Part shown: in pieces, positions 1 through 12,204 of the stretch
How positions within the stretch are numbered: position 1 is the first letter of the stretch
Layout: the number at the start of each line of letters is the position of its first letter
Origin: Fibrobacteria bacterium
GTDB taxonomy: Bacteria; Fibrobacterota; Fibrobacteria; UBA11236
NCBI GenBank assembly: GCA_043732185.1
Contig: JAYTHY010000069.1
Span: forward strand, 1-12,204
DNA length: 12,204 nucleotides
Direction of reading: 5' to 3'
The notes under the pieces: model-generated
The model's database searches: none
What the model was told of the DNA's origin: nothing
Seen by the model: only the letters and a program-made list of their open reading frames with translations
Translations under genes and position numbers: made by a program

Positions 1-3000
1 CCAAGATTGCAATTCCCATCCCGCGGCGGAGTTTTGATAATACTCTCGAAAATAGGTGATGGAACCGATTAAAGGGCTATGAAGACCATAGGGTCGCAAT
101 TGTGCGTCAATGCGAAACAGCTTGCCATGCAATCCCGGTTCGCTAGCCGCCGCGACAAATAGCCGAGCCCAGGCTTCCAGCGCCACCTGTTGAGCACTCT
201 CGATTTTGTCCGCATCATAAAGAAACACGATATCGATATCTGAACTGTAATTGAGTTCATTGCCGCCAAGTTTTCCTAAGGCGATAATAGCCATCGCATG
301 CGCCATAGGATCCGTCCCGGCCTTTACCATGGTCAGCTTGAAAATGGCATGTACCAAAGCATTGGTCAGCTGACTGATTTCCGCGGTAATCCTTTGCAAA
401 GGTTCACCCAGAAAAATATCCCGTAAGCCAATGCGTAAATATTCTCGATTGCGGTAACGACGTAAGTTTTCCAGGGCCAAGTCAAAATTCCGGTCGTCTT
501 CCTCGCTTTCAGCCTCGGCAACCGGAATGTCTATCCAGGTTTTGATTTCGTTTTGAAATTCCGACCACAATTTTGGTTTTTCCAAAGCGCGCGGAGTACC
601 CAGTGCGAGCAGGTATTCCGGCTGTTGCAATAAAATCTGTGTGAGATATTCGCTATGCCCAAAGGCTTTGATCAATATGGCATGCAAATGGGGATGGTTC
701 AACATCTGGCGTATGAAATAATCCGCATCTGGAACAACTTCCAAGAATTCGCCCAAATGCTGTAGTACGCCTACAGGATCCGGACTCGCTCGTAATCGGG
801 ATTCCGACACGACTAAGGCTGCGCACAAAAGGCCTTTTTCCTTAACATTTTTAAACAAAGTGTCGATCAAATTTTGAGGGCTTGCGACTTCATGCACTCC
901 TAGCCGGTCGAGCGCATTGCTTAATTGTTCAGTAGTTGCCGCCGGATCCAGAAAAATTGCTGTCAAAGAAGTTGCGTCGGAATCTAGTTCCGTTGACCCT
1001 TGGAATCGAGAGGCAAATACGGAACGGACCTTTCGCAAGGTTTGCTTAAGGTCCCACGCCATTTGGGAATCGGGTTGGAATCGCGCGGTTGGAAGGTAAC
1101 CCATGCGTTTCGCCAAGGTCTGAAATTCCGGTGTGCTTTGGGCCGGGACCCATAAATCGCGGGAATGTCCATGAACCATGCGTAACGCGTTGATTAGACG
1201 TCGGAGAAAAACATACCCGTGATACAGTTTCTCGAATTCTTCCGGTGATAATATGCCTTCGGCTAGGAGCACTTCCAAGGCCTTTTCCGTATTGGCTTCC
1301 CGTAAAGAGGAGATCCTACGACCGTGTTGCAATTGTAAAAACTGAACGGCATATTCAATTTCCACTAATCCACCAGGGGCATACTTGGCATTGATCAAGC
1401 CAGTGCCATCCGTATTATTATTTGCTTTTAACTCTATTTGCTTAGCACGCAGCAATAAGGTCTTGTCGATGCCAATTTTTCTTTCTCCAAAAACCAAGGC
1501 ATCTCTAGCGCCCATCACTCGCGAGGCAAACCCAGGTGTAGCGGCAATGGGCCTTAGCTTTAGCAGGGCTTGGCTTTCAAACTCCAGTGCGCCGCCATCT
1601 TCTCCATAATAGGCCACCCAACTGTCGACGGTTGTGGCCAGAGGTCCGGCATCACCATGGGGTCGCAAGCGCAGGTCCAGTTCGAAAATACCATCCTTTC
1701 TAGCCACGATAAGGATTCGAATCTCCTGAACCAATAAGGAAAAGAATTCCGCATGGCTAATGGTGTTTGCGGTACCAACCGTTTCGCCTGAATTGCCGTA
1801 GAGCATTTGTAATTCCAGGTCCGAAGCATAGCCAAGTTCACGCCCCCCCAGCTTGCCCTGCGCGAAGAGTCCAAAATGGCAAGGGCTGGCCTGGGACCCT
1901 TCCGAAACCGGTGCCATCGGTTCTCCATAAATACTGCGGAGGTGATCATAGCCGATCCACATGGCGTTTTCCAATATGACATCAGCCAAGTCGCTTAATT
2001 CACCGGAAAATTCTTGCAGGGTTTTGTGCGGATGGATGAGATAAACCACATCCAATCGAAACAATTGCAGGTCCTTGAATCGATTTAAGGTTAAAACCTT
2101 TTCGGGATAGGTGGGTTGTTGTACCAGCTTCAGAGCCAAGATTTTATCCAGCTCTTCACGTGTGGAAAATTTTTGTCTCTCGTCTCTATCGCGCAAAATC
2201 TCGATCAGATCCGGCATCGGAATTTTGATCAATTCTTCCCACAAATAAGGTCCGGCGCTGAGAAGCTTAGCCAATGTGGAGAGGGTGGAAAAATCTTCGA
2301 AGGTCGGTAAGTCCGGCCGTTCATTTGTGTTTTCCATCAGGGTGTTGATGAATGCATTGAAGGTTTGCACAGCGGCCGGGTAATCGGAAGCCTGGGGCAG
2401 GGTAGAGGTAAAACGCTCCATCAAAATAATGGCGACCTTGAGCCGTTCCAAAGTATCGACATTTGCAATAGGGCGACTCTGGCTATCGGTTATATAGATG
2501 CGATCTTCAAAACGATCCGCCTCGGATGTGGTGAGGAGTTTTTGGATGGATACGCCTTGCAGCATGAGGGCATTGCTCAGCGAAAAAAGCAGGGCCTTGT
2601 GGTCCGTGCCACTCACGGTGAGGACGGTTTGTTTGTCGTCATACTCGTAATGGATATCCAGTGGAAGCCGCGATGTTTCCAATTTGGAGGCGTTTCGGCT
2701 TAAATAGTCGCCCATTCGACGGTATAGATCGAGCTGTAATTCTTGAGTCTGCCGGGATTTCAAAAGTTGGATTAAACGGTCCAAGTCGGTGCCGATTTTG
2801 GTTTTCAGCGCGTCAGTCAAGATTCCAGGAATGGCGTGCTGCAGAACCAGATAGTCGAGGATGCGAACCTGTTCTCGACCTGATTTTTCAGCGGTTTCCG
2901 AAAAGTCCGAGCCTTTTGAATAGGTAAATACCTTACCGATGCGAATATCAAAGTCATAGCTGGCAATTAAACCCGTGAGGGCCGCAAAAAAGCCAGGAAG

Positions 3001-3240
3001 GTCCTCGCCGATTATGGTTAACCCACAATTCAAGTCGTCCAGGGGAACAAAATCGAGAGCGAAGGATCCGGGAATTTTTAGGGTCCTGATCTTTTCCAGA
3101 TGGAGAATAATTTCTTGCGGGGTAAACTCGTTAAAATAATCCGAGTCCAAGTATTTCAAATGATCGGCTACCAAGCGGGAGGGCAGGTCCGCTCCCAGCT
3201 GCAAGACCTGGGTTTTCTTTTCGAAGGGAGTTAAAGGCAT
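1..3240 (-). CDS. glnE: Glutamine synthetase adenylyltransferase/deadenylyltransferase (GlnE) with two N-terminal ACT domains; 3' end lies outside the window
   Basis: I translated this frame by hand. ATG at 3240 (MPLTPFEKKTQVLQLG...) is followed by 1080 codons with no stop before the window edge. There are two GlnE NT motifs: QGKLGGRELGYASDLEL (aa ~461-477) with FELDLRLRPHGDAGPLA, and ALGKLGGNELNYSSDIDIVFLY (aa ~987-1008) with FRIDAQLRPYG. A helical-domain motif NAKYAPGGLVEIEYAVQFLQL...GYVFLRRLINALRM is present. The gene lies directly downstream of glnA. Confidence 0.95.
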   Translation of the reverse strand, partial: MPLTPFEKKTQVLQLGADLPSRLVADHLKYLDSDYFNEFTPQEIILHLEKIRTLKIPGSFALDFVPLDDLNCGLTIIGEDLPGFFAALTGLIASYDFDIRIGKVFTYSKGSDFSETAEKSGREQVRILDYLVLQHAIPGILTDALKTKIGTDLDRLIQLLKSRQTQELQLDLYRRMGDYLSRNASKLETSRLPLDIHYEYDDKQTVLTVSGTDHKALLFSLSNALMLQGVSIQKLLTTSEADRFEDRIYITDSQSRPIANVDTLERLKVAIILMERFTSTLPQASDYPAAVQTFNAFINTLMENTNERPDLPTFEDFSTLSTLAKLLSAGPYLWEELIKIPMPDLIEILRDRDERQKFSTREELDKILALKLVQQPTYPEKVLTLNRFKDLQLFRLDVVYLIHPHKTLQEFSGELSDLADVILENAMWIGYDHLRSIYGEPMAPVSEGSQASPCHFGLFAQGKLGGRELGYASDLELQMLYGNSGETVGTANTISHAEFFSLLVQEIRILIVARKDGIFELDLRLRPHGDAGPLATTVDSWVAYYGEDGGALEFESQALLKLRPIAATPGFASRVMGARDALVFGERKIGIDKTLLLRAKQIELKANNNTDGTGLINAKYAPGGLVEIEYAVQFLQLQHGRRISSLREANTEKALEVLLAEGILSPEEFEKLYHGYVFLRRLINALRMVHGHSRDLWVPAQSTPEFQTLAKRMGYLPTARFQPDSQMAWDLKQTLRKVRSVFASRFQGSTELDSDATSLTAIFLDPAATTEQLSNALDRLGVHEVASPQNLIDTLFKNVKEKGLLCAALVVSESRLRASPDPVGVLQHLGEFLEVVPDADYFIRQMLNHPHLHAILIKAFGHSEYLTQILLQQPEYLLALGTPRALEKPKLWSEFQNEIKTWIDIPVAEAESEEDDRNFDLALENLRRYRNREYLRIGLRDIFLGEPLQRITAEISQLTNALVHAIFKLTMVKAGTDPMAHAMAIIALGKLGGNELNYSSDIDIVFLYDADKIESAQQVALEAWARLFVAAASEPGLHGKLFRIDAQLRPYGLHSPLIGSITYFREYYQNSAAGWELQSW

Positions 3241-3262
3241 CGGAGAGTAAAAAAATAGAAAT

Positions 3263-3291
3263 AAAAAAAAGCCTCCCCCTGGGGGGAAGGC
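3263..3291 (-). terminator. Intrinsic (Rho-independent) terminator after glnA
   Basis: The minus strand reads GCCTTCCCC-CCA-GGGGGAGGC-TTTTTTTT: a GC-rich 8-9 bp stem with one G-U pair followed by U8, about 50 nt after the glnA stop. Confidence 0.85.
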
Positions 3292-3341
3292 CGCTACACA
3301 TTTGAGGAAAACCTCGAACTAGAAGTGAAGTGTCCGCGGTT

Positions 3342-4742
3342 TTACCCGTGGTAATACAACTCGAATTCAAAGGGATTCGGGCGCAATTTCATAGGTTCAA
3401 TTTCTGCCGTGCGCTTGTAGGTCATGTAGGACTCGAGCATATCGGCGTCAAATACATCCCCAGCCAATAGCCATTCCTTGTCCTTTTGGAGTTCGGCATG
3501 CGCTTCCTCTAGGTCCTTGCAAGTAGACGGAATATTCTTTAATTCTTCCGGGGGCAACTCATAGATGTTCTTATTAGCCGGTGCACCTGGGTCGATTTGC
3601 TTTTTGATGCCATCGATCATGGCCATCAGCATTGCAGCAAAGGTCAAGTACGGCGAACCCGAGCTGTCTGGGCAACGGAATTCAAACCGACGAGCCTTGT
3701 CACCCTTGACATGCGGAATGCGAATGGAAGCGGATCGATTGGTTGCCGAGTAGGCCAGATTAACGGGCGCTTCATACCCTGGCACCAAACGGCGGTAGCT
3801 GTTAACGCTGGAGTTGGAAAAGGCCTGAATGGACTTGCCGTGTTTGATAATTCCGCCGATGGCCCAAATGGCTTGCTTGCTCATGTTGGCATAGCCGTCG
3901 CCGGCAAAAAGGTTTTTGCCTTCTTTCCAAACTGAGGTATGCACATGCATGCCGCTGCCGTTGTCGCCCCACATGGGCTTGGGCATGAAGGTAGCCGTCT
4001 TGCCGTATTTGGCAGCCGTATTTTTAACTGCATATTTGAGCTTGTGTACTTGATCGGCAGCGGAAATCACGGTTCCGAACTGCACGCCGATTTCACATTG
4101 GGCCGTTGCCACTTCATGATGGTGAATTTCTGGAGTGAGTCCCATCTTGATGAGATTTTGAACCATTTCACTTCGGATATCGAACAAGGTATCCTGTGGC
4201 GAAGTGGGGGCGTATCCGGCCTTAAAGCCAACTTTATGACCAAGGCTGCCTTCGGCGCTGCTGGTCCAGGGGCCTTCGCCTGTTTCAATGACGTACATGC
4301 CCTGACGGGGATCGCTATTGTAGCGGATGCCGTCAAAGATGAAAAATTCGGGTTCTGGACCCATGAAGGCCATATCGCCTATGCCCGTGCTCTTTAGGTA
4401 TGCGAGAGCCTTGGATGCGATGGAGCGTGGGTCGCGATTGTAAGGCTGTCCGGTGCGTGGTTCGATAATGTCGCAGAACATGCCCAAGGTGGGGATGGTG
4501 CGGAACGGATCCACAAAAGCCGAACTGGGGTCGGGTTTCATAATCATATCAGACGCTTCAATTCCCTTCCATCCACGTATGGAGGAACCGTCGAATGCCA
4601 TTCCATCTTTGAACATATCGTCATCGAGGCGGCTTACCGGAAAAGTGAAATGCTGCAAAGAGCCGAACATATCTCCAAACAACAAATCCACAAATTGGAC
4701 GCTGTTTTCTTTGGCTAGTTTAATGACATCGGATGGGGTCAT
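3342..4742 (-). CDS. glnA: Type I glutamine synthetase (GSI-beta), 466 aa
   Basis: Signature motifs FDGSSIRGW, GPEPEFFIFD, HHHEVATAQCE, TATFMPKPMWGDNGSGMHVH, YRRLVPGYEAP, NRSASIRIP and RFEFRCPD. The adenylylation loop NKNIYELPPEE (Tyr394) corresponds to E. coli DKNLYDLPPEE. Purine-rich AGAGGAAAAGAAG lies upstream of the ATG. Confidence 0.99.
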   Translation of the reverse strand: MTPSDVIKLAKENSVQFVDLLFGDMFGSLQHFTFPVSRLDDDMFKDGMAFDGSSIRGWKGIEASDMIMKPDPSSAFVDPFRTIPTLGMFCDIIEPRTGQPYNRDPRSIASKALAYLKSTGIGDMAFMGPEPEFFIFDGIRYNSDPRQGMYVIETGEGPWTSSAEGSLGHKVGFKAGYAPTSPQDTLFDIRSEMVQNLIKMGLTPEIHHHEVATAQCEIGVQFGTVISAADQVHKLKYAVKNTAAKYGKTATFMPKPMWGDNGSGMHVHTSVWKEGKNLFAGDGYANMSKQAIWAIGGIIKHGKSIQAFSNSSVNSYRRLVPGYEAPVNLAYSATNRSASIRIPHVKGDKARRFEFRCPDSSGSPYLTFAAMLMAMIDGIKKQIDPGAPANKNIYELPPEELKNIPSTCKDLEEAHAELQKDKEWLLAGDVFDADMLESYMTYKRTAEIEPMKLRPNPFEFELYYHG

Positions 4743-4852
4743 ATCTTCTTCTTTTCCTCTTGCAAATGGTGGTTCAAAAATAAATTCAGGTCAAATTTTT
4801 CTAGCAGTTTCGGAAAGTAGCAAAAAAGCTTTGGAGGTAATTGATGGACAAC

Positions 4853-4900
4853 AATTGACATTTGTTAACATAAAATTACAAATAGCCATTTTTGTCAAAT
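4853..4900. promoter_or_regulatory. AT-rich dyad element (candidate operator or leader hairpin) in the glnA upstream region
   Basis: ATTTGT-N12-ACAAAT (4860-4883) is nested within inverted TTGACA (4855-4860) and TGTCAA (4893-4898). The latter is a perfect minus-strand -35 hexamer with only a weak -10 (TTTTAT at 17 bp). Confidence 0.4.
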
Positions 4901-4943
4901 TGAATCGCTCCATATCTGGCCTATTTTGCCACTTATAGTCATT

Positions 4944-4961
4944 AAGCGAATCATATGCCAG
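4944..4961 (-). promoter_or_regulatory. Candidate sigma-54 (-24/-12) promoter for glnA
   Basis: Minus strand CTGGCATATGATTCGCTT has exact GG-N10-GC spacing (GG at 4959-4958, GC at 4947-4946). It resembles enterobacterial glnAp2 (TGGCACAGATTTCGCTT) and is correctly oriented upstream of glnA. Confidence 0.65.
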
Positions 4962-4965
4962 GCCA

Positions 4966-5541
4966 CTAAACTCCATCTTTAAAATCCTGAAACAGCTTAC
5001 TTGCCTGGGGAGCCCGTTGCTGGGTGTACTTCCCTTTATAGTAGCTGATTTCACCTTCCGGCATCATGAAGTAGACTTGGCCGATGCGTACGTTAGGGTA
5101 CACCCGAATCGGGTGAACGACTTCGATTTCCAGCGTCCATGTTGGGTATTGGCAAACAAGTTGACCCTCCGCATTCGGTAGATAACCCCAGCCCACATCC
5201 CCAAAACCCGCCGTTATATGGGTGTTAATTCCCAAGCGTCCAATAGAACTTCGGCCTTCAAACATAGGCACAAAGCGATGACTGGTGGCCGTTTCATTGC
5301 TGCATCCCAAGTAGAGTGTTCCGGGTTGGAGAACCAGTCCTTCTTCAGGAATCGTCACCGATAGCGTGGGATTATCCTGCTTCATATCTAAAACGTTTCC
5401 CGCAGGAAGGTCATACACAAGCAGCTTGGGATGGAGTGACACATCGTAGGAATTCGGACCCAGATGAGCGGGAACGAATGGGGAAATATGGATAGCGCCC
5501 AGCTCCATCTGACGCACAATTTCATGACCCGTCAAAACCAT
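4966..5541 (-). CDS. dcd: dCTP deaminase (trimeric dUTPase superfamily), 191 aa
   Basis: Motifs PNSYDVSL, GLVLQPGTLYLG, EGRSSIGRLGINTHITAGFGDVG, WTLEI, PIRVYPNVRIGQVYF and YKGKY. Shine-Dalgarno GGAGGT precedes the ATG. Confidence 0.92.
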   Translation of the reverse strand: MVLTGHEIVRQMELGAIHISPFVPAHLGPNSYDVSLHPKLLVYDLPAGNVLDMKQDNPTLSVTIPEEGLVLQPGTLYLGCSNETATSHRFVPMFEGRSSIGRLGINTHITAGFGDVGWGYLPNAEGQLVCQYPTWTLEIEVVHPIRVYPNVRIGQVYFMMPEGEISYYKGKYTQQRAPQASKLFQDFKDGV

Positions 5542-5624
5542 TTTTACCTCCGTTCGTAAAACTTAAAAATTATAGAGATAGCTTGGGACTTTGCCCAAGG
5601 ACGCTTTGCTTTTAACTTAAGGGC

Positions 5625-6857
5625 ATGAGGATGTTGATGATTGTCATAGGGTTGGCATGGGTCCACTTGTATAGTGGCGTATGCACCTACCTTGAATTTC
5701 AGTTGCCACGGCGGCAAGCGGACACTATTGGAAGGGAATTGCCGTACTACCTCGCTTTTCCTGACAGTGTGGCATTGGTTTCCGTTCACGCATTTCTACA
5801 GGCAACGGACTCACAGGCGAAAGCCATGTTGCAAAAGGTGGACTGGCAGGCGAAGTCGTTAAATAATAAAGAACGTCGGTTTTTAAACGCCATGCGGTAT
5901 TTTGTCGACGGTAAAATTCAGGAAGCAGGGACAGAAATGGCGGCTATTTCGACCCAAGTTCCGACAAAATTACGGTCGCCTTTGTTAATCGATCGCGGGC
6001 TTCTTTTGTTGCTAGGTGGGTTTCCTCTGGATGCAGAAAACACCTGGCGACGAATGCTAAAGGCAGATGCGGAGGGTCAGCCTTGTGCCGAAGGGGCTTG
6101 GCGCAATCTTTACTCGTTTTATTTGGACAGCCATGATTTTAAAAATGCCAACGGCCTTGTGGAACAGGCTTTGAACGTTGCGCCCAAAAATAAATGGGCG
6201 AACTTTGCAAAGGGATTTCTGCTGCGAATGCTGGATCCGGGGGACGGCTGGGAAAACTTTCTAAGGGAAAAATCCTCTTGGCAGGATTCCTTATTTGAAA
6301 TACAAATTGCCTATGGAAAATTTCTTAAAGAAAGGGGCCAACTTTCTGAAGCGGCCAAGTATTACAGCCGAGGATTAGAAGGCTCACCTAAAAATGGTCC
6401 AGGCTGGTTGGATTTAGCTGAAATTTATTATCGGTTGGACTATCTGGTTTTTTCCGAAACTTGCCTTCGGCAATCTTTTCGTTTTGGAATTGCGGATCCT
6501 TACATTTATGAATTATACAGTCGGCTGCTTCAGTCCGGCAACCCGGATGCAGAAGGAGGTGCGGAACGCTGGCAAGCCGCAGAACGGGTTTTGGAAGCGG
6601 GATTTCCTCACGATTTTCAGAGCCGCAGTATGGCACAACTTTTATACCATGTTTACAGCCATAACCGAAAAGTTGACGCAGCTGCAAATCTCCGAGACCA
6701 ATTTTGGTTCCATTTTCAAGGCCCCAGGCGCGTACATCAAATGGCTTTAGTCGGCATGCGGACGCGTGGCAAGCTGCAGTTACATATAGCACTGGACGAA
6801 GTGAGCTTTCCGCTTATTCGGAGTCTAAGTACAACCGATTTTTACGAAGCTTTTTAG
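5625..6857 (+). CDS. Tetratricopeptide-repeat-like protein with hydrophobic N-terminus (likely exported), 410 aa
   Basis: Long ORF with a hydrophobic N-terminus (MRMLMIVIGLAWVHLYSG). TPR-like helical units include AWRNLYSFYLDSHDFKNANGLVEQALNVAPKN and IAYGKFLKERGQLSEAAKYYSRGLEGSPKNGPGWLDLAEIYYRL. Confidence 0.75.
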   Translation: MRMLMIVIGLAWVHLYSGVCTYLEFQLPRRQADTIGRELPYYLAFPDSVALVSVHAFLQATDSQAKAMLQKVDWQAKSLNNKERRFLNAMRYFVDGKIQEAGTEMAAISTQVPTKLRSPLLIDRGLLLLLGGFPLDAENTWRRMLKADAEGQPCAEGAWRNLYSFYLDSHDFKNANGLVEQALNVAPKNKWANFAKGFLLRMLDPGDGWENFLREKSSWQDSLFEIQIAYGKFLKERGQLSEAAKYYSRGLEGSPKNGPGWLDLAEIYYRLDYLVFSETCLRQSFRFGIADPYIYELYSRLLQSGNPDAEGGAERWQAAERVLEAGFPHDFQSRSMAQLLYHVYSHNRKVDAAANLRDQFWFHFQGPRRVHQMALVGMRTRGKLQLHIALDEVSFPLIRSLSTTDFYEAF

Positions 6858-6910
6858 TACATTTGGCCAAGTCGCATTTTGAATCATAAAGTCTGGCGGG
6901 AGGACTTCAC

Positions 6911-8155
6911 TTGGGCATAAAAAAACTTTTCCCCATTGCAGGCATTCTGTTTTTTGCAGCATTAAATTTGCCTTGGGCTCGCTCTCAAACAAATGTGTGT
7001 CCTGAAGCGGATATTAACGCCAACTCTGCAAACTTAGTGGTACAAACTCCGGCGCTAAAATATACCGTCACCAACTTCGATCCAAGTTGGTTCGACACCG
7101 ACCATCCTGAAAACTCACCTACCTTGTTTACCCTCATGATTTCTCCAACCTTGGCAAAATATGCTGACGTTCTGAGGTTACGAGTACAAATCCTCGCGGA
7201 CACTTCACTAGGCCGTGGGGGAGGGCAAACCGGCATTCCCGCTTTCGATAAAGTCACCACTGTTCTCGATGGGACAAAAATCGGCACCGTATTGCGCTCG
7301 CAGGATGTTTTCGCTCTCAATTACCTCCCTGGAGGACTTTCCTTTCAGAAAAGCGAACTCTTTGACATTATTCTGAATAATCGAGTGGCTCCAGAGATGA
7401 ATCTGTTATTCAAATTCAATTTGACTTGCGAAGATGATGCTGTTTTAGCTGCGACGACGGCTACTGTTAAGCTTGGAGACGACGGTCGCCTGCGCTATGT
7501 CAAAATGATTCAGGCTCTTTATCCCGGTACGCAAATAACCAACCCAGTTCCTGTGCCTTTGTATACCATGACTCCAATATTCAAGGTCGCTTCTGAATTG
7601 TTTAACGCCAAGATTTTCGATTACCCACCAGACCAATCTAAAATCGAAATTTTCCTCTATGAGTTGCCTTCCGGCGTGTCACCTTCGGATGCCATGGACG
7701 GTTTGGAATTTGCAAAATTCGGAATAAATAATGAGTCGCCCACGCCTTATCCACCCGGCTTGCCGCGATTAGAGCCTGGCGTGAAATATATTTGGAGGGC
7801 ACGTGCATTACTGCGCGGGCCAACGTCGGATTATCTTTATTCTAACCCACTTTATTTCAAAGTGGATGAGCGTTTGGAAGGGGGCTCCTCCGTACCACCT
7901 TCCGAGATTACGGACTTAAAATCGCTTGAACAGCAGATCAAGTATGGCGACGATTACTCCAAACGCGTTATGGCCGCGCTAAAAATCATACTTGGTGATA
8001 ATTTTGAAATCTTTGAAATGTCGCGTACAGGAAAGGTTCCTGCCAAAGGTCAAATACGCCTTAATGGACATCCCTATTCATTGGAAGAGTTAGAACGGTT
8101 GGCTCGGGAGTTTCATCAAAGTAGGCATAGCTTAACCCGTTTGAGGTTCCAATGA
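6911..8155 (+). CDS. Hypothetical secreted protein, beta-rich, with an Ig/FN3- or DUF928-like segment, 414 aa
   Basis: TTG start after a GGAGGA Shine-Dalgarno. Signal-peptide-like N-terminus GIKKLFPIAGILFFAALNLPWARS-Q. The segment YPPGLPRLEPGVKYIWRARA resembles the LxPGxxYxW motif of FN3/DUF928-type strands. Its stop overlaps the next start (ATGA). Confidence 0.75.
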   Translation: MGIKKLFPIAGILFFAALNLPWARSQTNVCPEADINANSANLVVQTPALKYTVTNFDPSWFDTDHPENSPTLFTLMISPTLAKYADVLRLRVQILADTSLGRGGGQTGIPAFDKVTTVLDGTKIGTVLRSQDVFALNYLPGGLSFQKSELFDIILNNRVAPEMNLLFKFNLTCEDDAVLAATTATVKLGDDGRLRYVKMIQALYPGTQITNPVPVPLYTMTPIFKVASELFNAKIFDYPPDQSKIEIFLYELPSGVSPSDAMDGLEFAKFGINNESPTPYPPGLPRLEPGVKYIWRARALLRGPTSDYLYSNPLYFKVDERLEGGSSVPPSEITDLKSLEQQIKYGDDYSKRVMAALKIILGDNFEIFEMSRTGKVPAKGQIRLNGHPYSLEELERLAREFHQSRHSLTRLRFQ

Positions 8156-8847
8156 TGCATGTTTTTTATCGCAGGAAAAGCCTGTTTTTGCTTTTGCATA
8201 CAGCTTTCTTAATGCTGGCTGCAGGGATGGCATGTGCAGATGTCAATGGCGTCGGTGTCGTGCGATCCACCAAGGGTTCTGTCCATGCAACCTTGGGCGG
8301 TGTCGAAACAGATTTAAAAGGTTCAGAACTTTTGGGTACGGGCGTTCAAATTGTTGCTGGCGCGGATGGAAAAGCAGTTTTGCGCTTGTTGCCTGACCAG
8401 GCTTTTATGGATATACATCCAAAAACAAATTTCGTTATGAAGCGGGTCAAGGCTAAGTCCAAAAGAATTCGACGCATAAAACTCGACCTTGGCGAAGTGG
8501 TTTTTGGCTTGAAGAAAAAAAGTGAACCCGTTCAGTGCGAAAGTATGCACACCCTGGCAATCGCACAGGCAGGGCGATTTGCGTGCAAAACGGATGAAAA
8601 GGGTGTAGCGACAATTTTGGTCCAAGACGGTGAGGTGTCCGTCTACAACCGGCCGAAGGATTTAACCACCCTTGTTCGATCCGGACAAAAGGCCGTGTCC
8701 GATATCAATGGAATCAAGGTGTCTGACGCATCCGACTCTGAATTGGAACAGGTTGGGTTTAGGCAAAATATTATTGAAGTAGACTTTGTGAATCCGGAAA
8801 CCGATGCGTATACGACTTTGGAAGTGGAATATGAAACCAACTTTTAA
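8152..8847 (+). CDS. FecR-domain-like secreted protein, 231 aa
   Basis: Signal peptide ending MACA-D. FecR-like beta pattern GVVRSTKGSV...LLGTGVQIVAGADGKAVLRL...IKLDLGEV...ATILVQDGEVSV...TLVRSGQKAV. ATGA overlap with the upstream gene at 8152-8155. Confidence 0.75.
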   Translation: MMHVFYRRKSLFLLLHTAFLMLAAGMACADVNGVGVVRSTKGSVHATLGGVETDLKGSELLGTGVQIVAGADGKAVLRLLPDQAFMDIHPKTNFVMKRVKAKSKRIRRIKLDLGEVVFGLKKKSEPVQCESMHTLAIAQAGRFACKTDEKGVATILVQDGEVSVYNRPKDLTTLVRSGQKAVSDINGIKVSDASDSELEQVGFRQNIIEVDFVNPETDAYTTLEVEYETNF

Positions 8848-11131
8848 ACTGTTTGTCGGAATCCGGCACATTCTTGTTTTTGGAATAATTTTTATTGGCA
8901 CTCATGTATGGGCACAAGTGGCAGCGACTCCAGATGCGGGTGGAGACACCTTGGATACGTCTACGCCTGCACCCGCTGGGATTGAAGCGGCACCTACACC
9001 TGCCACAGCACCGGCCAATCAAGTGGATAACGAATCCGACGATTTTTCAGTTGAACCAGAAATAGGTGGATTCCTTGTTCCTATTGAAGGCGACGTATTT
9101 TATGAACCCGACGTCCGGGTCTTGGTCTCTTTACCCGGTGCACCGCCAGCAAGTATGGTGCTTTTGTTGGATGGCCTTCCAGTGTCGAGTCCGCTGGCCA
9201 TAAAGGAAGAGTTGCTAACCGTGACCATTCAAATTCACAAATCCGGTGCCCATCAACTCAGTCTATTGTTGTTTAATGAGCACACGGAAATAACGGCTAA
9301 ATTGGAAACACGCTTTTTTGTCCGATTGCCAGAGCCACAACGGGCGATCCGCAATTCCAATTTCAAACAGTTCGGACGGGTAGTGGCAAAAGTCGACTGG
9401 AAAAATGGTGAAGCTAAAGGCAGAATCTTGTCCCAAAGTGAATTGAGTTTGAAACCCGACACCCGGGATACACTTGTGGCCGGTAAAGCGGAAGCACCGG
9501 TTTCACAGGAATTGGATGGAGCAACGGAAGCCGCATATAACATCAAATACAAACAGGTGCAGGCCTTTGGAAAAGTTCTGCTAAGGACCGACGAAAATCG
9601 CTTTCGACAGCCCGCTCACCGCATTACTACCAGCTTGAAATATGGCCCTTGGGCCGCATTGAAGGCCGGGGATATTTATCCCTTGTATAATTCACTAGTG
9701 TTAAATGGTACGCGCGTGCGTGGAGCCGAAGCCATGATGAATATTGTTACGAGTGAAAAAAAATGGGCATCATTGCGCGTGGTTCGTGGCGAAAGTCGTC
9801 GGGAAGTGCCCGCTTACCTAGTCAAATATGACACTGGAAATGGAACTCGTACGGACACTGTTACGGGAACCTATGGTCAGACTTTGTCGGCGGCGAGACT
9901 TGGGTTAGGTGGAGGACCCGCTTTTGAATTGGGCTTTTCACTATTGAAGGCGTCTGATCATGAAGGTAGCGCGGATAGAGAACAAGTAAATTCCATGCTC
10001 CATGGACTCCGGCCTGCAGATAATTTGGTGCCGGGCATGGATTTGCGTATTGGAATTTGGGATGGTCGCATCCAAATATTTGGAAACTCTGCTATGAGTC
10101 TTTACACGCGTGACCGCTCTTTAGGCGCCTTTCATCCCGACACATTTGCCGTGGCTATTAATCCGGAAAATTTTAAAAATGTCTTTATTTTCAATGCGAC
10201 CACGCGAGGCTGGCAATATTTACTGAGTAAGAAGGCCACGAATACCAGCCCTGATGTACTTGGTTTTATGGGGACCAACAGCGCTTACGAAGGTGGCGTT
10301 GTTTCCTCTTTGCCTTTTGCAGGAGTAGTGGCAGAAACTGAGCTGCGCTATTCCCACTTAGGTCTCGATTACCATAGTGAAGGCAATCCATTCCTGGGGG
10401 GCAATCCCGGTGATGGATTTACATTGCTGCAGAAATTAATAGTCCTCGAAAATAAACTTTCCTTGGGTCTGGAATTGGGAAACTATGCTCAGGACCTTGG
10501 AATCACTAAGACTATACAGCGAAATGTAAAAGCGGAGATTCGCTTTACACCTGGTCCATACCAACCAAGTTTATGGATCGGTGGCGGTTATTCCAATATC
10601 GTGCCCGATGGAAGCTTTGTGCACCAATTCCGATCCAGTTTCCTCAACTTCAATTCCGGAGGGTATCACCAATTTCAAGTTGCGGATGGAAAAATGTATA
10701 CGACACTCCTTTACGGCTTTACCCAAAGCAAATACTCACTTGAAACACAGGATCCCACTGACACGTCACAAAATTTCCCGACAACGCGCACCAATATCGT
10801 GAATGCCATGTTGCAGTATAAAATGCACAATACCGAATTTTTGCCGCGGCTTGCGTATACTTTTTCGCATAACGGGATTCAATTGCCAACCAATGCCATA
10901 AGTATGGGTTTTCTTCAGCCCTTCTTAGAAAACACGGTACGGCTGGATCTTTCCAGCACCATTGGTCAGTATCCTGAGTCCAACAAAAAGAATGACTTGA
11001 GCCTAGGCGCTGCGGCCGCAGTGGAATATGTTTTAGGCCCGCAACAAACGTTTCGCATTCGCGAGCGCTGGATTCAATACGGCAAACGCCGCAGCTTGCT
11101 CCTCGGTGCCAACTACGAAATGTTCTTCTGA
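8831..11131 (+). CDS. Putative outer-membrane beta-barrel protein with a Pro/Ala/Thr-rich linker and an N-terminal Ig-like domain, ~766 aa
   Basis: The in-frame ATG at 8831 gives a plausible signal peptide (MKPTFKLF...IFIGTHVWA-QV) and a 17-nt overlap with the FecR-like gene; the ORF-track start at 8804 is less likely. There are many amphipathic strands (e.g. LRYSHLGLDYHSEGNPFL, LSLGLELGNY) and a C-terminal beta-signal-like end, LLLGANYEMFF. Confidence 0.8.
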   Translation: MKPTFKLFVGIRHILVFGIIFIGTHVWAQVAATPDAGGDTLDTSTPAPAGIEAAPTPATAPANQVDNESDDFSVEPEIGGFLVPIEGDVFYEPDVRVLVSLPGAPPASMVLLLDGLPVSSPLAIKEELLTVTIQIHKSGAHQLSLLLFNEHTEITAKLETRFFVRLPEPQRAIRNSNFKQFGRVVAKVDWKNGEAKGRILSQSELSLKPDTRDTLVAGKAEAPVSQELDGATEAAYNIKYKQVQAFGKVLLRTDENRFRQPAHRITTSLKYGPWAALKAGDIYPLYNSLVLNGTRVRGAEAMMNIVTSEKKWASLRVVRGESRREVPAYLVKYDTGNGTRTDTVTGTYGQTLSAARLGLGGGPAFELGFSLLKASDHEGSADREQVNSMLHGLRPADNLVPGMDLRIGIWDGRIQIFGNSAMSLYTRDRSLGAFHPDTFAVAINPENFKNVFIFNATTRGWQYLLSKKATNTSPDVLGFMGTNSAYEGGVVSSLPFAGVVAETELRYSHLGLDYHSEGNPFLGGNPGDGFTLLQKLIVLENKLSLGLELGNYAQDLGITKTIQRNVKAEIRFTPGPYQPSLWIGGGYSNIVPDGSFVHQFRSSFLNFNSGGYHQFQVADGKMYTTLLYGFTQSKYSLETQDPTDTSQNFPTTRTNIVNAMLQYKMHNTEFLPRLAYTFSHNGIQLPTNAISMGFLQPFLENTVRLDLSSTIGQYPESNKKNDLSLGAAAAVEYVLGPQQTFRIRERWIQYGKRRSLLLGANYEMFF

Positions 11132-11135
11132 AAAC

Positions 11136-11188
11136 GACCAAGACCGTGTTATGCAGAGCACAGCGGCTTTGCGTAATGCCTATTGGTT
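11136..11188 (+). other. Long RNA hairpin in the convergent intergenic region (possible 3'-end stabiliser or terminator)
   Basis: GTGTTATGCAGAGC (11146-11159) pairs with GCTTTGCGTAATGC (11166-11179) as a 14-bp stem with 4 G-U pairs. An outer GACCAA/TTGGTT stem extends it. There is no U-tract. Confidence 0.55.
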
Positions 11189-11199
11189 CATAGCTTAGT

Positions 11200-12204
11200 T
11201 TAAGCCGGAAATCGGCTCAATCCCTGACGACGCCATGGCTGGAATGGGTCCAAGGGTACCGGGGTTCTGTCTCCATTTAATAAACTGACCATGCACTTGG
11301 CAGCCAGCGGTGCCATGCTGATGCCGCATTTATAATGCCCGGCGCAAATCGCCCAGCCCCTATCAGAATCTATCCAACCCATCCAGGGCAGTCTGTCTCG
11401 CGTGCGGGGCCGGAAGCCGGCCCAGCTTTCTTTGGGTTCTCGGTTTACTTCTGGTAGCAGTTCATTGAGATGCCGCGTAAAGTATTCCTGGCCAATGGCA
11501 TCAAACCCCGGACTCCAAGTTTTAGGTTCCGTGGTCGCGCCGACAATTAAACTGTCCCCGCGAGGGACCAAATAAATGTCCTCGTTAAAATGCACCATGC
11601 AGTTTTCCGCGTAGAATTTTTTAAGTCGGAACATCTGGCCTTTGACAGGAATCATCGGAGCCGCGATGCCTATCGATTTTAGAAATTCACCTGTCCAAGC
11701 CCCTGATGTCAGTAATATTTTTTTTGTTTTGACTTGGCCTTCCGGGAACTGCAAAGATGTTTTCCCGGCCTGATATTGCCATGCACCCGTGGGAGTGCTT
11801 GCCATGAACGTGACCCCGGATTTCCGACATGCCTTTTCTAATGCCGAAAGCAGATCTCTATTTTGGACATACGCTTCAGACGGAAAGTGTAAGGTCTTTA
11901 CTTGTTTCAAAGGGCAATGGGAATTGAGAAACGCCGGTAGTGTGTCAGAAATACTGTAGTCCCGGGCGTGCTCCCTTTCCAGCTGTTTGACCTTGGTTCG
12001 ATATTGCTCTTCGCCCACCGGAGTTTCCAAATTGTAAATCTGATAGTCTCCGTGCCGATGCAACGCCACAGTTTCTCCAGAGAGTCGGGAAATGTCGGAA
12101 AGCCAATCCGGATAGAGATGAATGGACCGGACATAAAATTCTCTGAAGGGAGAAAGAAAAACCTGCGCGTCGCGTGTGACTAGAATTCCTGCCGCCGCCC
12201 ACGA
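11200..12204 (-). CDS. thiO: Glycine oxidase ThiO-like FAD-dependent oxidoreductase (DAO family); N-terminus lies outside the window
   Basis: The frame is open from the right edge: SWAAAGILVTRDAQVFLSPFREFYVRSIHLYPDWL... continues into the ORF-track protein (335 codons including the stop). Motifs SWAAAGIL, TSGAWT, PVKGQ, YLVPRGDSLIVGATTE, WAGFRP and GHYKCGISMAP. The family is clear, but the exact ThiO function is less certain. Confidence 0.75.
   Translation of the reverse strand, partial: SWAAAGILVTRDAQVFLSPFREFYVRSIHLYPDWLSDISRLSGETVALHRHGDYQIYNLETPVGEEQYRTKVKQLEREHARDYSISDTLPAFLNSHCPLKQVKTLHFPSEAYVQNRDLLSALEKACRKSGVTFMASTPTGAWQYQAGKTSLQFPEGQVKTKKILLTSGAWTGEFLKSIGIAAPMIPVKGQMFRLKKFYAENCMVHFNEDIYLVPRGDSLIVGATTEPKTWSPGFDAIGQEYFTRHLNELLPEVNREPKESWAGFRPRTRDRLPWMGWIDSDRGWAICAGHYKCGISMAPLAAKCMVSLLNGDRTPVPLDPFQPWRRQGLSRFPA

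Follow-up and report, generated by a model that had tools for sequence, protein, structure and literature searches.

Can the enzyme that adenylylates glutamine synthetase (GS) carry a sensor of nitrogen status of its own, and does such a sensor take over from the known signaling cascade? The question is raised by a DNA stretch of 12,204 nucleotides (hereafter the window) from a Fibrobacteria bacterium of the lineage UBA11236 (assembly GCA_043732185.1, contig JAYTHY010000069.1, positions 1 to 12,204), in which a glnE gene with a non-canonical N-terminus lies on the minus strand beside the GS gene glnA. The control of GS by adenylylation is a textbook bicyclic cascade, and glutamine directly stimulates the adenylylating (AT) reaction of the Escherichia coli enzyme. 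The C-terminal half of the E. coli adenylyltransferase adenylylates GS and the N-terminal half de-adenylylates it, both under the control of PII and uridylylated PII (PII-UMP), according to PMC12409994. The response of GlnD to glutamine requires its ACT domains (Zhang et al., 2010, cited by PMC11190351).

A sequence-only reading of the window had proposed that a GlnD-like tandem ACT module is fused to this GlnE and that the fusion may collapse the GlnD-PII-GlnE cascade into one protein next to its target GS. The first part of this proposal stands. The N-terminus of the protein (hereafter ACT-GlnE) is a GlnD-type pre-ACT helix followed by a tandem ACT pair, and the fusion is real and conserved. 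On balance, we regard the gene as coding for a bifunctional GS adenylyltransferase/adenylyl-removing enzyme that consists of the GlnD-type module, an AT-type half with a D-x-E motif and an adenylyl-removing (AR)-type half with a D-x-D motif, and whose ligand and mechanism we infer. The second part may hold in a narrower sense: the cascade is not collapsed in the organism of the window, and it may be so in some of the relatives, as described below.

The N-Terminal Module of GlnE

The module covers aa 1-285 of GlnE (nt 2386-3240, minus strand) and is composed of a helical segment and two ACT domains. It had been placed at 2420..3240, where it indeed lies, and it extends slightly further than this. 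The stretches quoted at the time are all present in the translation of the minus-strand frame 1-3240, namely the pre-ACT stretch DSDYFNEFTPQEIILHL (aa 32-48, nt 3097-3147), the ACT1 stretch LTIIGEDLPG...GKVFT (aa 74-106, nt 2923-3021) and the ACT2 stretch TVLTVSGTDHKA...SQSRPI (aa 205-258, nt 2467-2628).

Profile searches tie the module to GlnD. The NCBIfam GlnD models match it collinearly at E values of 1e-16 to 1e-19: PRK05092 aligns GlnE aa 10-272 with profile positions 678-920 of 940 (E 1.2e-16), and TIGR01693 aligns aa 23-271 with positions 619-845 of 850 (E 6.7e-16 for the 1080 aa in the window and 2.4e-19 for the full protein). The GlnD of the same genome gives one collinear BLASTP alignment with the module (255 columns, 21% identity, E 8e-8), which spans the pre-ACT helix, ACT1, the linker and ACT2. 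The pre-ACT segment is thereby aligned with the GlnD region that precedes the first ACT domain of GlnD, and the GTDHKALLF of ACT2 with the SDRIGLLF of the second. A profile made from the module finds this GlnD with 57.5 bits (E 6e-20).

An AlphaFold2 (AF2) model built on a 33-row alignment has a predicted local distance difference test score of 89.2 and a predicted template modeling score of 0.86, and it folds into four helices followed by two units of the beta-alpha-beta-beta-alpha type, the two ACT folds. ACT1 is predicted with strands 60-66, 71-79, 98-108 and 125-134 and helices 84-94 and 143-161; ACT2 with strands 195-200, 205-212, 231-240 and 243-251 and helices 217-227 and 261-279. Residues D80 and D213, which are both situated in beta1-alpha1 loops, are invariant in 33/33 rows of the alignment. 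In an all-against-all structure comparison, the best match of the module is aspartate kinase 3l76_B (Z 12.1, root-mean-square deviation 3.0, 145 aligned residues). Further tandem-ACT matches are the regulatory domain of threonine dehydratase 9d2s_A (Z 9.0), CASTOR1/2 (Z 7.3-7.7) and L-GDH180, the 180-kDa glutamate dehydrogenase of Mycobacterium smegmatis (Z 7.0), which is also the best Foldseek match (E 1.4e-5). Many single ACT domains match aa ~193-280 with Z 4-6.4.

The claim that the first ~270 aa are foreign to canonical GlnE was borne out. The canonical set consisted of E. coli GlnE and 11 diverse GlnE proteins from PLSDB records, since the 120 listed homologues of E. coli GlnE are all at least 88% identical and hence unfit to represent diversity. 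None of these 12 proteins exceeds 1.9 bits with the module profile, and E. coli GlnE has no ACT match in Pfam, only the GlnE and GlnD_UR_UTase domains.

Distribution and Domain Layouts

A word-indexed search with the N-terminus returned 34 protein clusters, all of them GlnE and 32 of them 1239-1336 aa long. The four clusters that bear an organism name belong to metagenome-assembled genomes (MAGs) of Fibrobacteres, Fibrobacterota or Fibrobacteria, and the related loci in named genomes (12/12) likewise come from Fibrobacteria-type MAGs. The exhaustive search of representatives reached much further, with 350 clusters (50% identity) at E <=1e-3 and 115 at E <=1e-10.

Layouts were classified with local profiles on the best 150 of the 350 clusters and on three proteins from the word-indexed search. 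In this classified set, the module is N-terminal in 34 full-length proteins, lies between the two halves in 22 full-length proteins, and is joined to the ACT-linked half alone in 21 clusters of 680-830 aa; the rest are shorter fragments. The middle-module proteins have an AR-type half before the module and the ACT-linked type after it (22/22). Thus, there are three layouts, ACT-AT-AR, AR-ACT-AT and ACT-AT, and in all 34 N-terminal, 22 middle and 21 single-half proteins the module directly precedes the same type of half. Canonical GlnD is represented among the best 150 by P0168 only.

The AR-ACT-AT form (~1130-1260 aa; P0076, P0084, P0098 and others), in which the module occupies the place of the E. 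coli central regulatory region, is placed by source names in Anaerolineae; there, its NCBI name is either 'ACT domain-containing protein' or GS adenylyltransferase. The stand-alone ACT-AT form (~680-830 aa; P0035, P0057, P0080 and others) occurs in Abditibacteriales and Nitrospirota according to the source names. No paper on an ACT-bearing GlnE was found in a search of open-access full text.

Probable Adenylylating and Adenylyl-Removing Halves

In the full protein (P0003), PF03710 and PF08335 each match in two stretches, with 264.8 and 139.9 bits, respectively. The two halves differ in their catalytic motif. Wherever the motif was found, it reads G-X11-D-X-E in the ACT-linked half (82/82), whereas the other half keeps D-X-D (63/63) and E. 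coli GlnE has D-X-D in both halves. The D-x-E motif is a clean signature of the subfamily. In the residues around it, the ACT-linked ELGYASDLE resembles the canonical AT motif ELGY[SAG]SDLD, and ELNYSSDID of the other half resembles the canonical AR motif ELN[FY]SSDID.

On the basis of an alignment with the E. coli protein, each canonical GlnE was split into an N-terminal and a C-terminal half, and these were set against 36 ACT-linked and 27 other halves of ACT-GlnE proteins. In the resulting tree (87 rows, 437 columns, LG+G4), the ACT-linked halves (36/36) form one clade with a support of 100 in the Shimodaira-Hasegawa-like approximate likelihood ratio test. A branch with a support of 96.7 has on the same side both this clade and the canonical C-terminal (AT) halves from proteobacteria, 10 in number; the halves that are not ACT-linked group with the canonical N-terminal (AR) halves. 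The two actinobacterial C halves fall on the AR side; in the actinobacterial GlnE of Tsukamurella and Nonomuraea, N and C halves group together (94), apart from the proteobacterial N and C halves.

Profiles built from the proteobacterial canonical halves placed the held-out actinobacterial control halves correctly (4/4). With these profiles, all 27 halves that are not ACT-linked score higher as canonical N-half (AR), by a mean margin of 51 bits, and 32 of the 36 ACT-linked halves score as AT-type, by a mean of 15.6 bits. The second half in the window reaches 201.6 bits with the N-half profile and 170.5 bits with the C-half profile. Assignment of the second half as AR-type is therefore well supported by sequence comparison, while that of the ACT-linked half as AT-type is favored but not proven. 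The order predicted for the protein is most likely ACT-ACT-AT-AR, the reverse of the E. coli halves. The assignment by position, which takes the ACT-linked half as AR and the second as AT following the order in E. coli, was dropped on the results of the tree and the profiles.

GlnD and PII in the Genome and Across the Phylum

The genome of the window encodes a full GlnD (C136:5342-7858; a 900-aa frame with 611 bits against a cut-off of 519), which speaks against a collapsed cascade, and two PII proteins over the cut-off, with the T-loops GHTELYRGSEY and GHSEVYRGAEY. Both have Tyr51, which we take to be the uridylylation site. The only GlnE in the genome is the ACT-GlnE of the window. Because a full GlnD and two Tyr51-bearing PII proteins are present, the bicyclic cascade is not collapsed in this organism. 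A third, divergent PII-like gene (G000:C46:16348-16653; 33.8 bits) has the T-loop region GFGNEHQPK without the usual motif.

The phylum sample comprised 121 genomes. GlnE over the cut-off was detected in 17 of them, and strong matches to the module in frames of GlnE length came from the same 17 genomes; no module-less GlnE was found among the 121. GlnD of full or nearly full length is present in 20 genomes and PII in 102, and 12 genomes have GlnD without GlnE. The survey of glnD and glnB/K that the sequence-only reading had called for gave a divided result. GlnD accompanies ACT-GlnE in 8 of the 17 genomes, namely in every one that belongs to the family of the window. In the other nine (G027, G047, G073, G075, G109, G043, G045, G063, and G069; completeness 88-96%), no GlnD was found; TIGR01693 gives best matches of E 4e-8 to 3e-12 there, and in the 8 of these genomes with a listed place the match falls on the ACT region of ACT-GlnE.

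PII is present in eight of the nine GlnD-less genomes, and G027 gave no PII match. Eleven PII sequences were read from seven of them (none from G047). At position 51, they have Phe in three cases, Ile in seven and Lys in one, and Tyr in none, while Tyr46 is kept in 10 of the 11. The lack of a GlnD match and of Tyr51 in these relatives is what speaks for the proposed collapse there. Ten of the 11 have the T-loop G[AC]GQQxGYTE[SH]YRG; the remaining one (G043c) is PII-like but divergent.

In G073, G075, and G069, PII genes are located within a few kb of ACT-glnE, amid amtB, genes for type I and type III GS (GSI and GSIII), a GAF-PtsP-like gene and sigma-54 activators. In G069 (L034:396-5300), genes for a GSIII and a glutamine amidotransferase of class I immediately precede the GSI-ACT-glnE pair, and a 408-aa open reading frame (ORF) without a Pfam match, amtB, glnK and a GAF-sigma-54 activator gene follow downstream, forming a compact nitrogen-assimilation cluster. 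The ACT-glnE of G075 (C1:58805-62238; L033:6653-9406) is split into two frames of 937 and 578 aa, which may reflect a frameshift or an assembly error.

Comparison With Known Systems

The reference for ACT-GlnE is E. coli GlnE (946 aa; 1v4a is its N-terminal AR domain and 3k7d its C-terminal R+AT part). Both proteins are built of two homologous PF03710 halves with a PF08335 helical domain after each, and ACT-GlnE matches both structures (E 1e-24 to 1e-30); its gene lies beside that of a type I GS in which the conserved tyrosine is kept. Unlike E. coli GlnE, it has a 285-aa GlnD-type module at the N-terminus, most likely the AT half ahead of the AR half, D-x-E in place of D-x-D in the ACT-linked half, and scores under the NCBIfam equivalog cut-offs.

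With GlnD, ACT-GlnE shares collinear homology over the whole module and, in each of the two ACT domains, an Asp in the beta1-alpha1 loop. However, the module precedes a GlnE-type half in ACT-GlnE and follows the HD domain in GlnD, and no HD domain is present in ACT-GlnE. With 21% identity to GlnD, the module constitutes a separate family.

Similar arrangements are known for other enzymes. L-GDH180 (7a1d, 7jsr), an enzyme of nitrogen metabolism like GlnE, has helix-plus-ACT units at its N-terminus and is the sole sequence-profile match to the module in the PDB (E 0.0078). It is a different enzyme, with 10-14% identity, and we know of no glutamine role for its ACT-like domains. In the Chlamydomonas alpha-amylase AMA2, a GlnD-like ACT domain N-terminal to the enzyme confers a response to glutamine (PMC11190351), and Arabidopsis ACR11 is reported to be tied to the control of GS2 and glutamate synthase (GOGAT) (PMC3173338, PMC4944146). 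Both belong to another kingdom and have other catalytic partners, and AMA2 has a single ACT domain.

Proposed Mechanism and Alternative Explanations

By analogy with what is reported for GlnD, the ACT pair would bind glutamine or a different amino acid that signals nitrogen status, and the ligand-bound pair would activate the adjacent AT half and/or shift the AT/AR balance; at high glutamine, GS would be adenylylated and its activity turned down. In the genome of the window, the module would provide a direct metabolite input alongside PII/PII-UMP control, which is still possible there because GlnD and Tyr51-bearing PII are present. In the GlnD-less relatives, the module may be the main nitrogen switch, PII-UMP being unable to form at position 51.

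A number of observations weigh against this reading of the gene. The complete GlnD-PII system in the genome makes the module unneeded to explain regulation here. At 21% identity to the ACT region of GlnD, the choice of glutamine as the ligand is a guess by analogy. The isolated N-terminus stays below the Pfam gathering thresholds for ACT (20.0 bits against 27 for PF01842, 20.1 against 23 for PF13740), with a weak match within ACT1 at aa 75-100; some homologues do carry a precomputed PF01842 annotation. The full protein is also under the cut-off of every NCBIfam GlnE equivalog (PRK11072 463.2/487, PRK14109 401.1/625, PRK14108 305.6/724), and the canonical G-X11-D-X-D is absent from the first half, which has D-x-E. 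As to the order of the halves, 4 of the 36 ACT-linked halves scored as AR-type, and that of the window is nearly a tie between the canonical profiles (155.6 and 152.9 bits). The approximately unbiased test retained the alternative grouping (p 0.217, log-likelihood difference 15.9). Single-sequence comparison with 1v4a and 3k7d does not discriminate, either for the ACT-linked half and the full protein (94.9 vs. 88.6 bits, and 108 vs. 98.9 for the full protein) or for the partial second half (52.2 vs. 64.2 bits). Mapping of each half on the NCBIfam GlnE models is mixed, and on PRK14109 even the E. coli AT half is drawn to the N-terminal part.

The proposal that ACT-GlnE is a self-contained glutamine sensor-enzyme, which replaces the GlnD-PII-GlnE cascade independently of PII in the organism of the window, starts from the fusion of a GlnD-type sensor to GlnE beside glnA, and it agrees with the 9 of 17 ACT-GlnE genomes in which no GlnD was found and with the 11 PII proteins from seven of those nine, none of which has Tyr51. 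In the genome in question, however, a full GlnD and two Tyr51-bearing PII proteins stand beside the single GlnE, all eight ACT-GlnE genomes of the family have GlnD, and PII genes are near ACT-glnE even in the GlnD-less G073, G075, and G069, so that a PII input stays possible there too; we consider the proposal distinctly unlikely. A form of it restricted to lineages without GlnD and with Tyr51-less PII is possible, and we put it forward tentatively. There the GS modification cycle could take its glutamine reading from the ACT pair, with a single polypeptide switching between AT and AR in place of GlnD and PII-UMP; the organism of the window would be an intermediate with both systems, and the ACT-AT unit would be the basic building module.

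The ligand and the catalytic role of the ACT-linked half admit other answers as well. The ligands of ACT pairs are diverse, the structural neighbors of the module sense Thr/Lys, Ile or Arg, the identity to the ACT domains of GlnD is low, and the module family is its own clade with a single canonical GlnD among the best 150 representatives. The tandem ACT might accordingly respond to another effector (a different amino acid, a nucleotide or 2-oxoglutarate) or serve oligomerization or docking to GS or PII. This we hold to be unlikely, as the sole sequence-level relatives outside the module family are the C-termini of GlnD and the context is strictly nitrogen assimilation, with glnA here and amtB-glnK, GSIII, PtsP-like and sigma-54 activator genes in the relatives. 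Because D-x-E departs from the D-x-D of the E. coli halves, catalysis by the ACT-linked half could be altered, and the strict division of the two motifs between the halves could even mean that this half is a degenerate, non-catalytic regulatory domain, leaving a single activity in the D-x-D half. But Glu can still bind metal, and the polymerase-beta-type motif allows D or E at that position; outside that position, both the motif and the half are strongly conserved. Moreover, the 21 clusters of 680-830 aa consist of the module and this half alone, which argues for an enzyme in its own right and makes a degenerate half very improbable. A sensor module adjoining an active AT-type half is the reading that we prefer.

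The Locus and Its Neighboring Genes

The window corresponds to bases 1-12204 of contig C69, in a genome of 4.46 Mb in 139 contigs. The glnE ORF starts at 3240 on the minus strand and runs off the contig end, leaving 1080 aa in the window; the remaining 197 aa were found at C18:3-596, giving a complete protein of 1278 aa. The assembly break is inside glnE, where C69 and C18 both begin within one codon with one base missing between them. The join is confirmed by the identical 1278-aa protein P0003 on a 26-kb contig. The coordinates of the features are collected in Table 1.

Table 1. Features of the ACT-glnE locus, with PII genes of GlnD-less relatives in the last row (positions are those of the window unless a locus is given).
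Feature	Position	Strand	Remarks
Second nucleotidyltransferase half (start), aa 850-1080 of 1278	1..693	-	PF03710 nt 4-675
Motif of second half GKLGGNELNYSSDID, D-x-D	aa 989-1003, nt 232-276	-	
ACT-linked nucleotidyltransferase half, aa 286-770	931..2385	-	PF03710 nt 1528-2280; PF08335 aa 616-743
Motif of ACT-linked half GKLGGRELGYASDLE, G-X11-D-X-E	aa 462-476, nt 1813-1857	-	
ACT domain 2, aa ~193-280, D213 in GTDHKALLF	2401..2664	-	AF2 model
Inter-ACT helical linker, aa 165-188	2677..2748	-	AF2 helices 165-182, 184-188
ACT domain 1, aa ~58-162, D80 in GEDLPGFF loop	2755..3069	-	AF2 model
Four-helix pre-ACT segment, GlnE aa 1-53, contains LDSDYFNEF..EI..H	3082..3240	-	AF2 helices 5-15, 21-30, 33-38, 41-53
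Terminator-like hairpin and T-run, glnA/glnE intergenic	3260..3292 (hairpin 3292-3270)	-	10-pair stem, 7 G-C, then TTTTTTTATT
glnA, type I glutamine synthetase, 466 aa, presumed GlnE substrate	3342..4742	-	TIGR00653 610 bits (cut-off 429)
dCTP deaminase-like	4966-5541	-	
Tetratricopeptide repeat (TPR) protein	5625-6857	+	
414-aa protein	6911-8155	+	No Pfam match
FecR-domain protein	8152-8847	+	
775-aa protein	8804-11131	+	No Pfam match
FAD-dependent oxidoreductase	11200-12204	-	Cut
PII genes without Tyr51	L032:9791-10132; L032:14433-14774; L033:4856-5197(-); L034:12323-12664; L048-L054		

That GlnE is encoded beside its presumed target GS, as the sequence-only reading had it, is confirmed by the glnA model match. 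Only 101 bases separate the glnA stop from the glnE start, both on the minus strand, and the same arrangement, with glnA directly upstream on the same strand, recurs in 11 of the 12 related loci, the 12th being cut by the contig end. Tyr394 of this GS (nt 3561-3563) sits in NIYELPPEE, a motif that aligns with knlydlppee of the solved GSI 9n4x; it is presumably the adenylylation site, equivalent to E. coli Tyr397. Under the strict pattern IY[DE]LPPEE, the tyrosine is present in 12 of the 13 related GS genes, and L024 gave no match.

The terminator-like hairpin between the two genes ends ~30 bases before the glnE ATG, and it suggests that glnE is probably expressed via partial read-through, at a lower level than GS. 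Terminator-like sites in 3100-5100 number 6 (2.4 +/- 1.3 in shuffled sequences). A sigma-54-like site upstream of glnA (4945-4960, minus strand, 2 mismatches) was rejected as not above chance: the window has 12 such matches where 7.3 +/- 2.5 are expected, and a count of 12 was reached in 14 of 200 shuffles.

Significance for Nitrogen Control

Automatic annotation hides ACT-GlnE, which is under the cut-offs of both Pfam ACT and the NCBIfam GlnE equivalogs; a domain scan with Pfam alone therefore leaves its ACT module unlabeled. The protein is an unstudied variant of a known enzyme and not a new kind of system, one that may read nitrogen status directly. What is known of the cascade is almost entirely enterobacterial, and the site at which glutamine acts on GlnE is poorly defined there. 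A separable GlnD-type sensor beside the probable adenylylating half would offer a direct handle on how enzymes of the GlnE class read glutamine, and the genomes that combine ACT-GlnE with Tyr51-less PII and no GlnD are a natural test of whether PII-UMP is dispensable. As a compact sensor-enzyme, ACT-GlnE may also serve as a part for the engineering of nitrogen assimilation.

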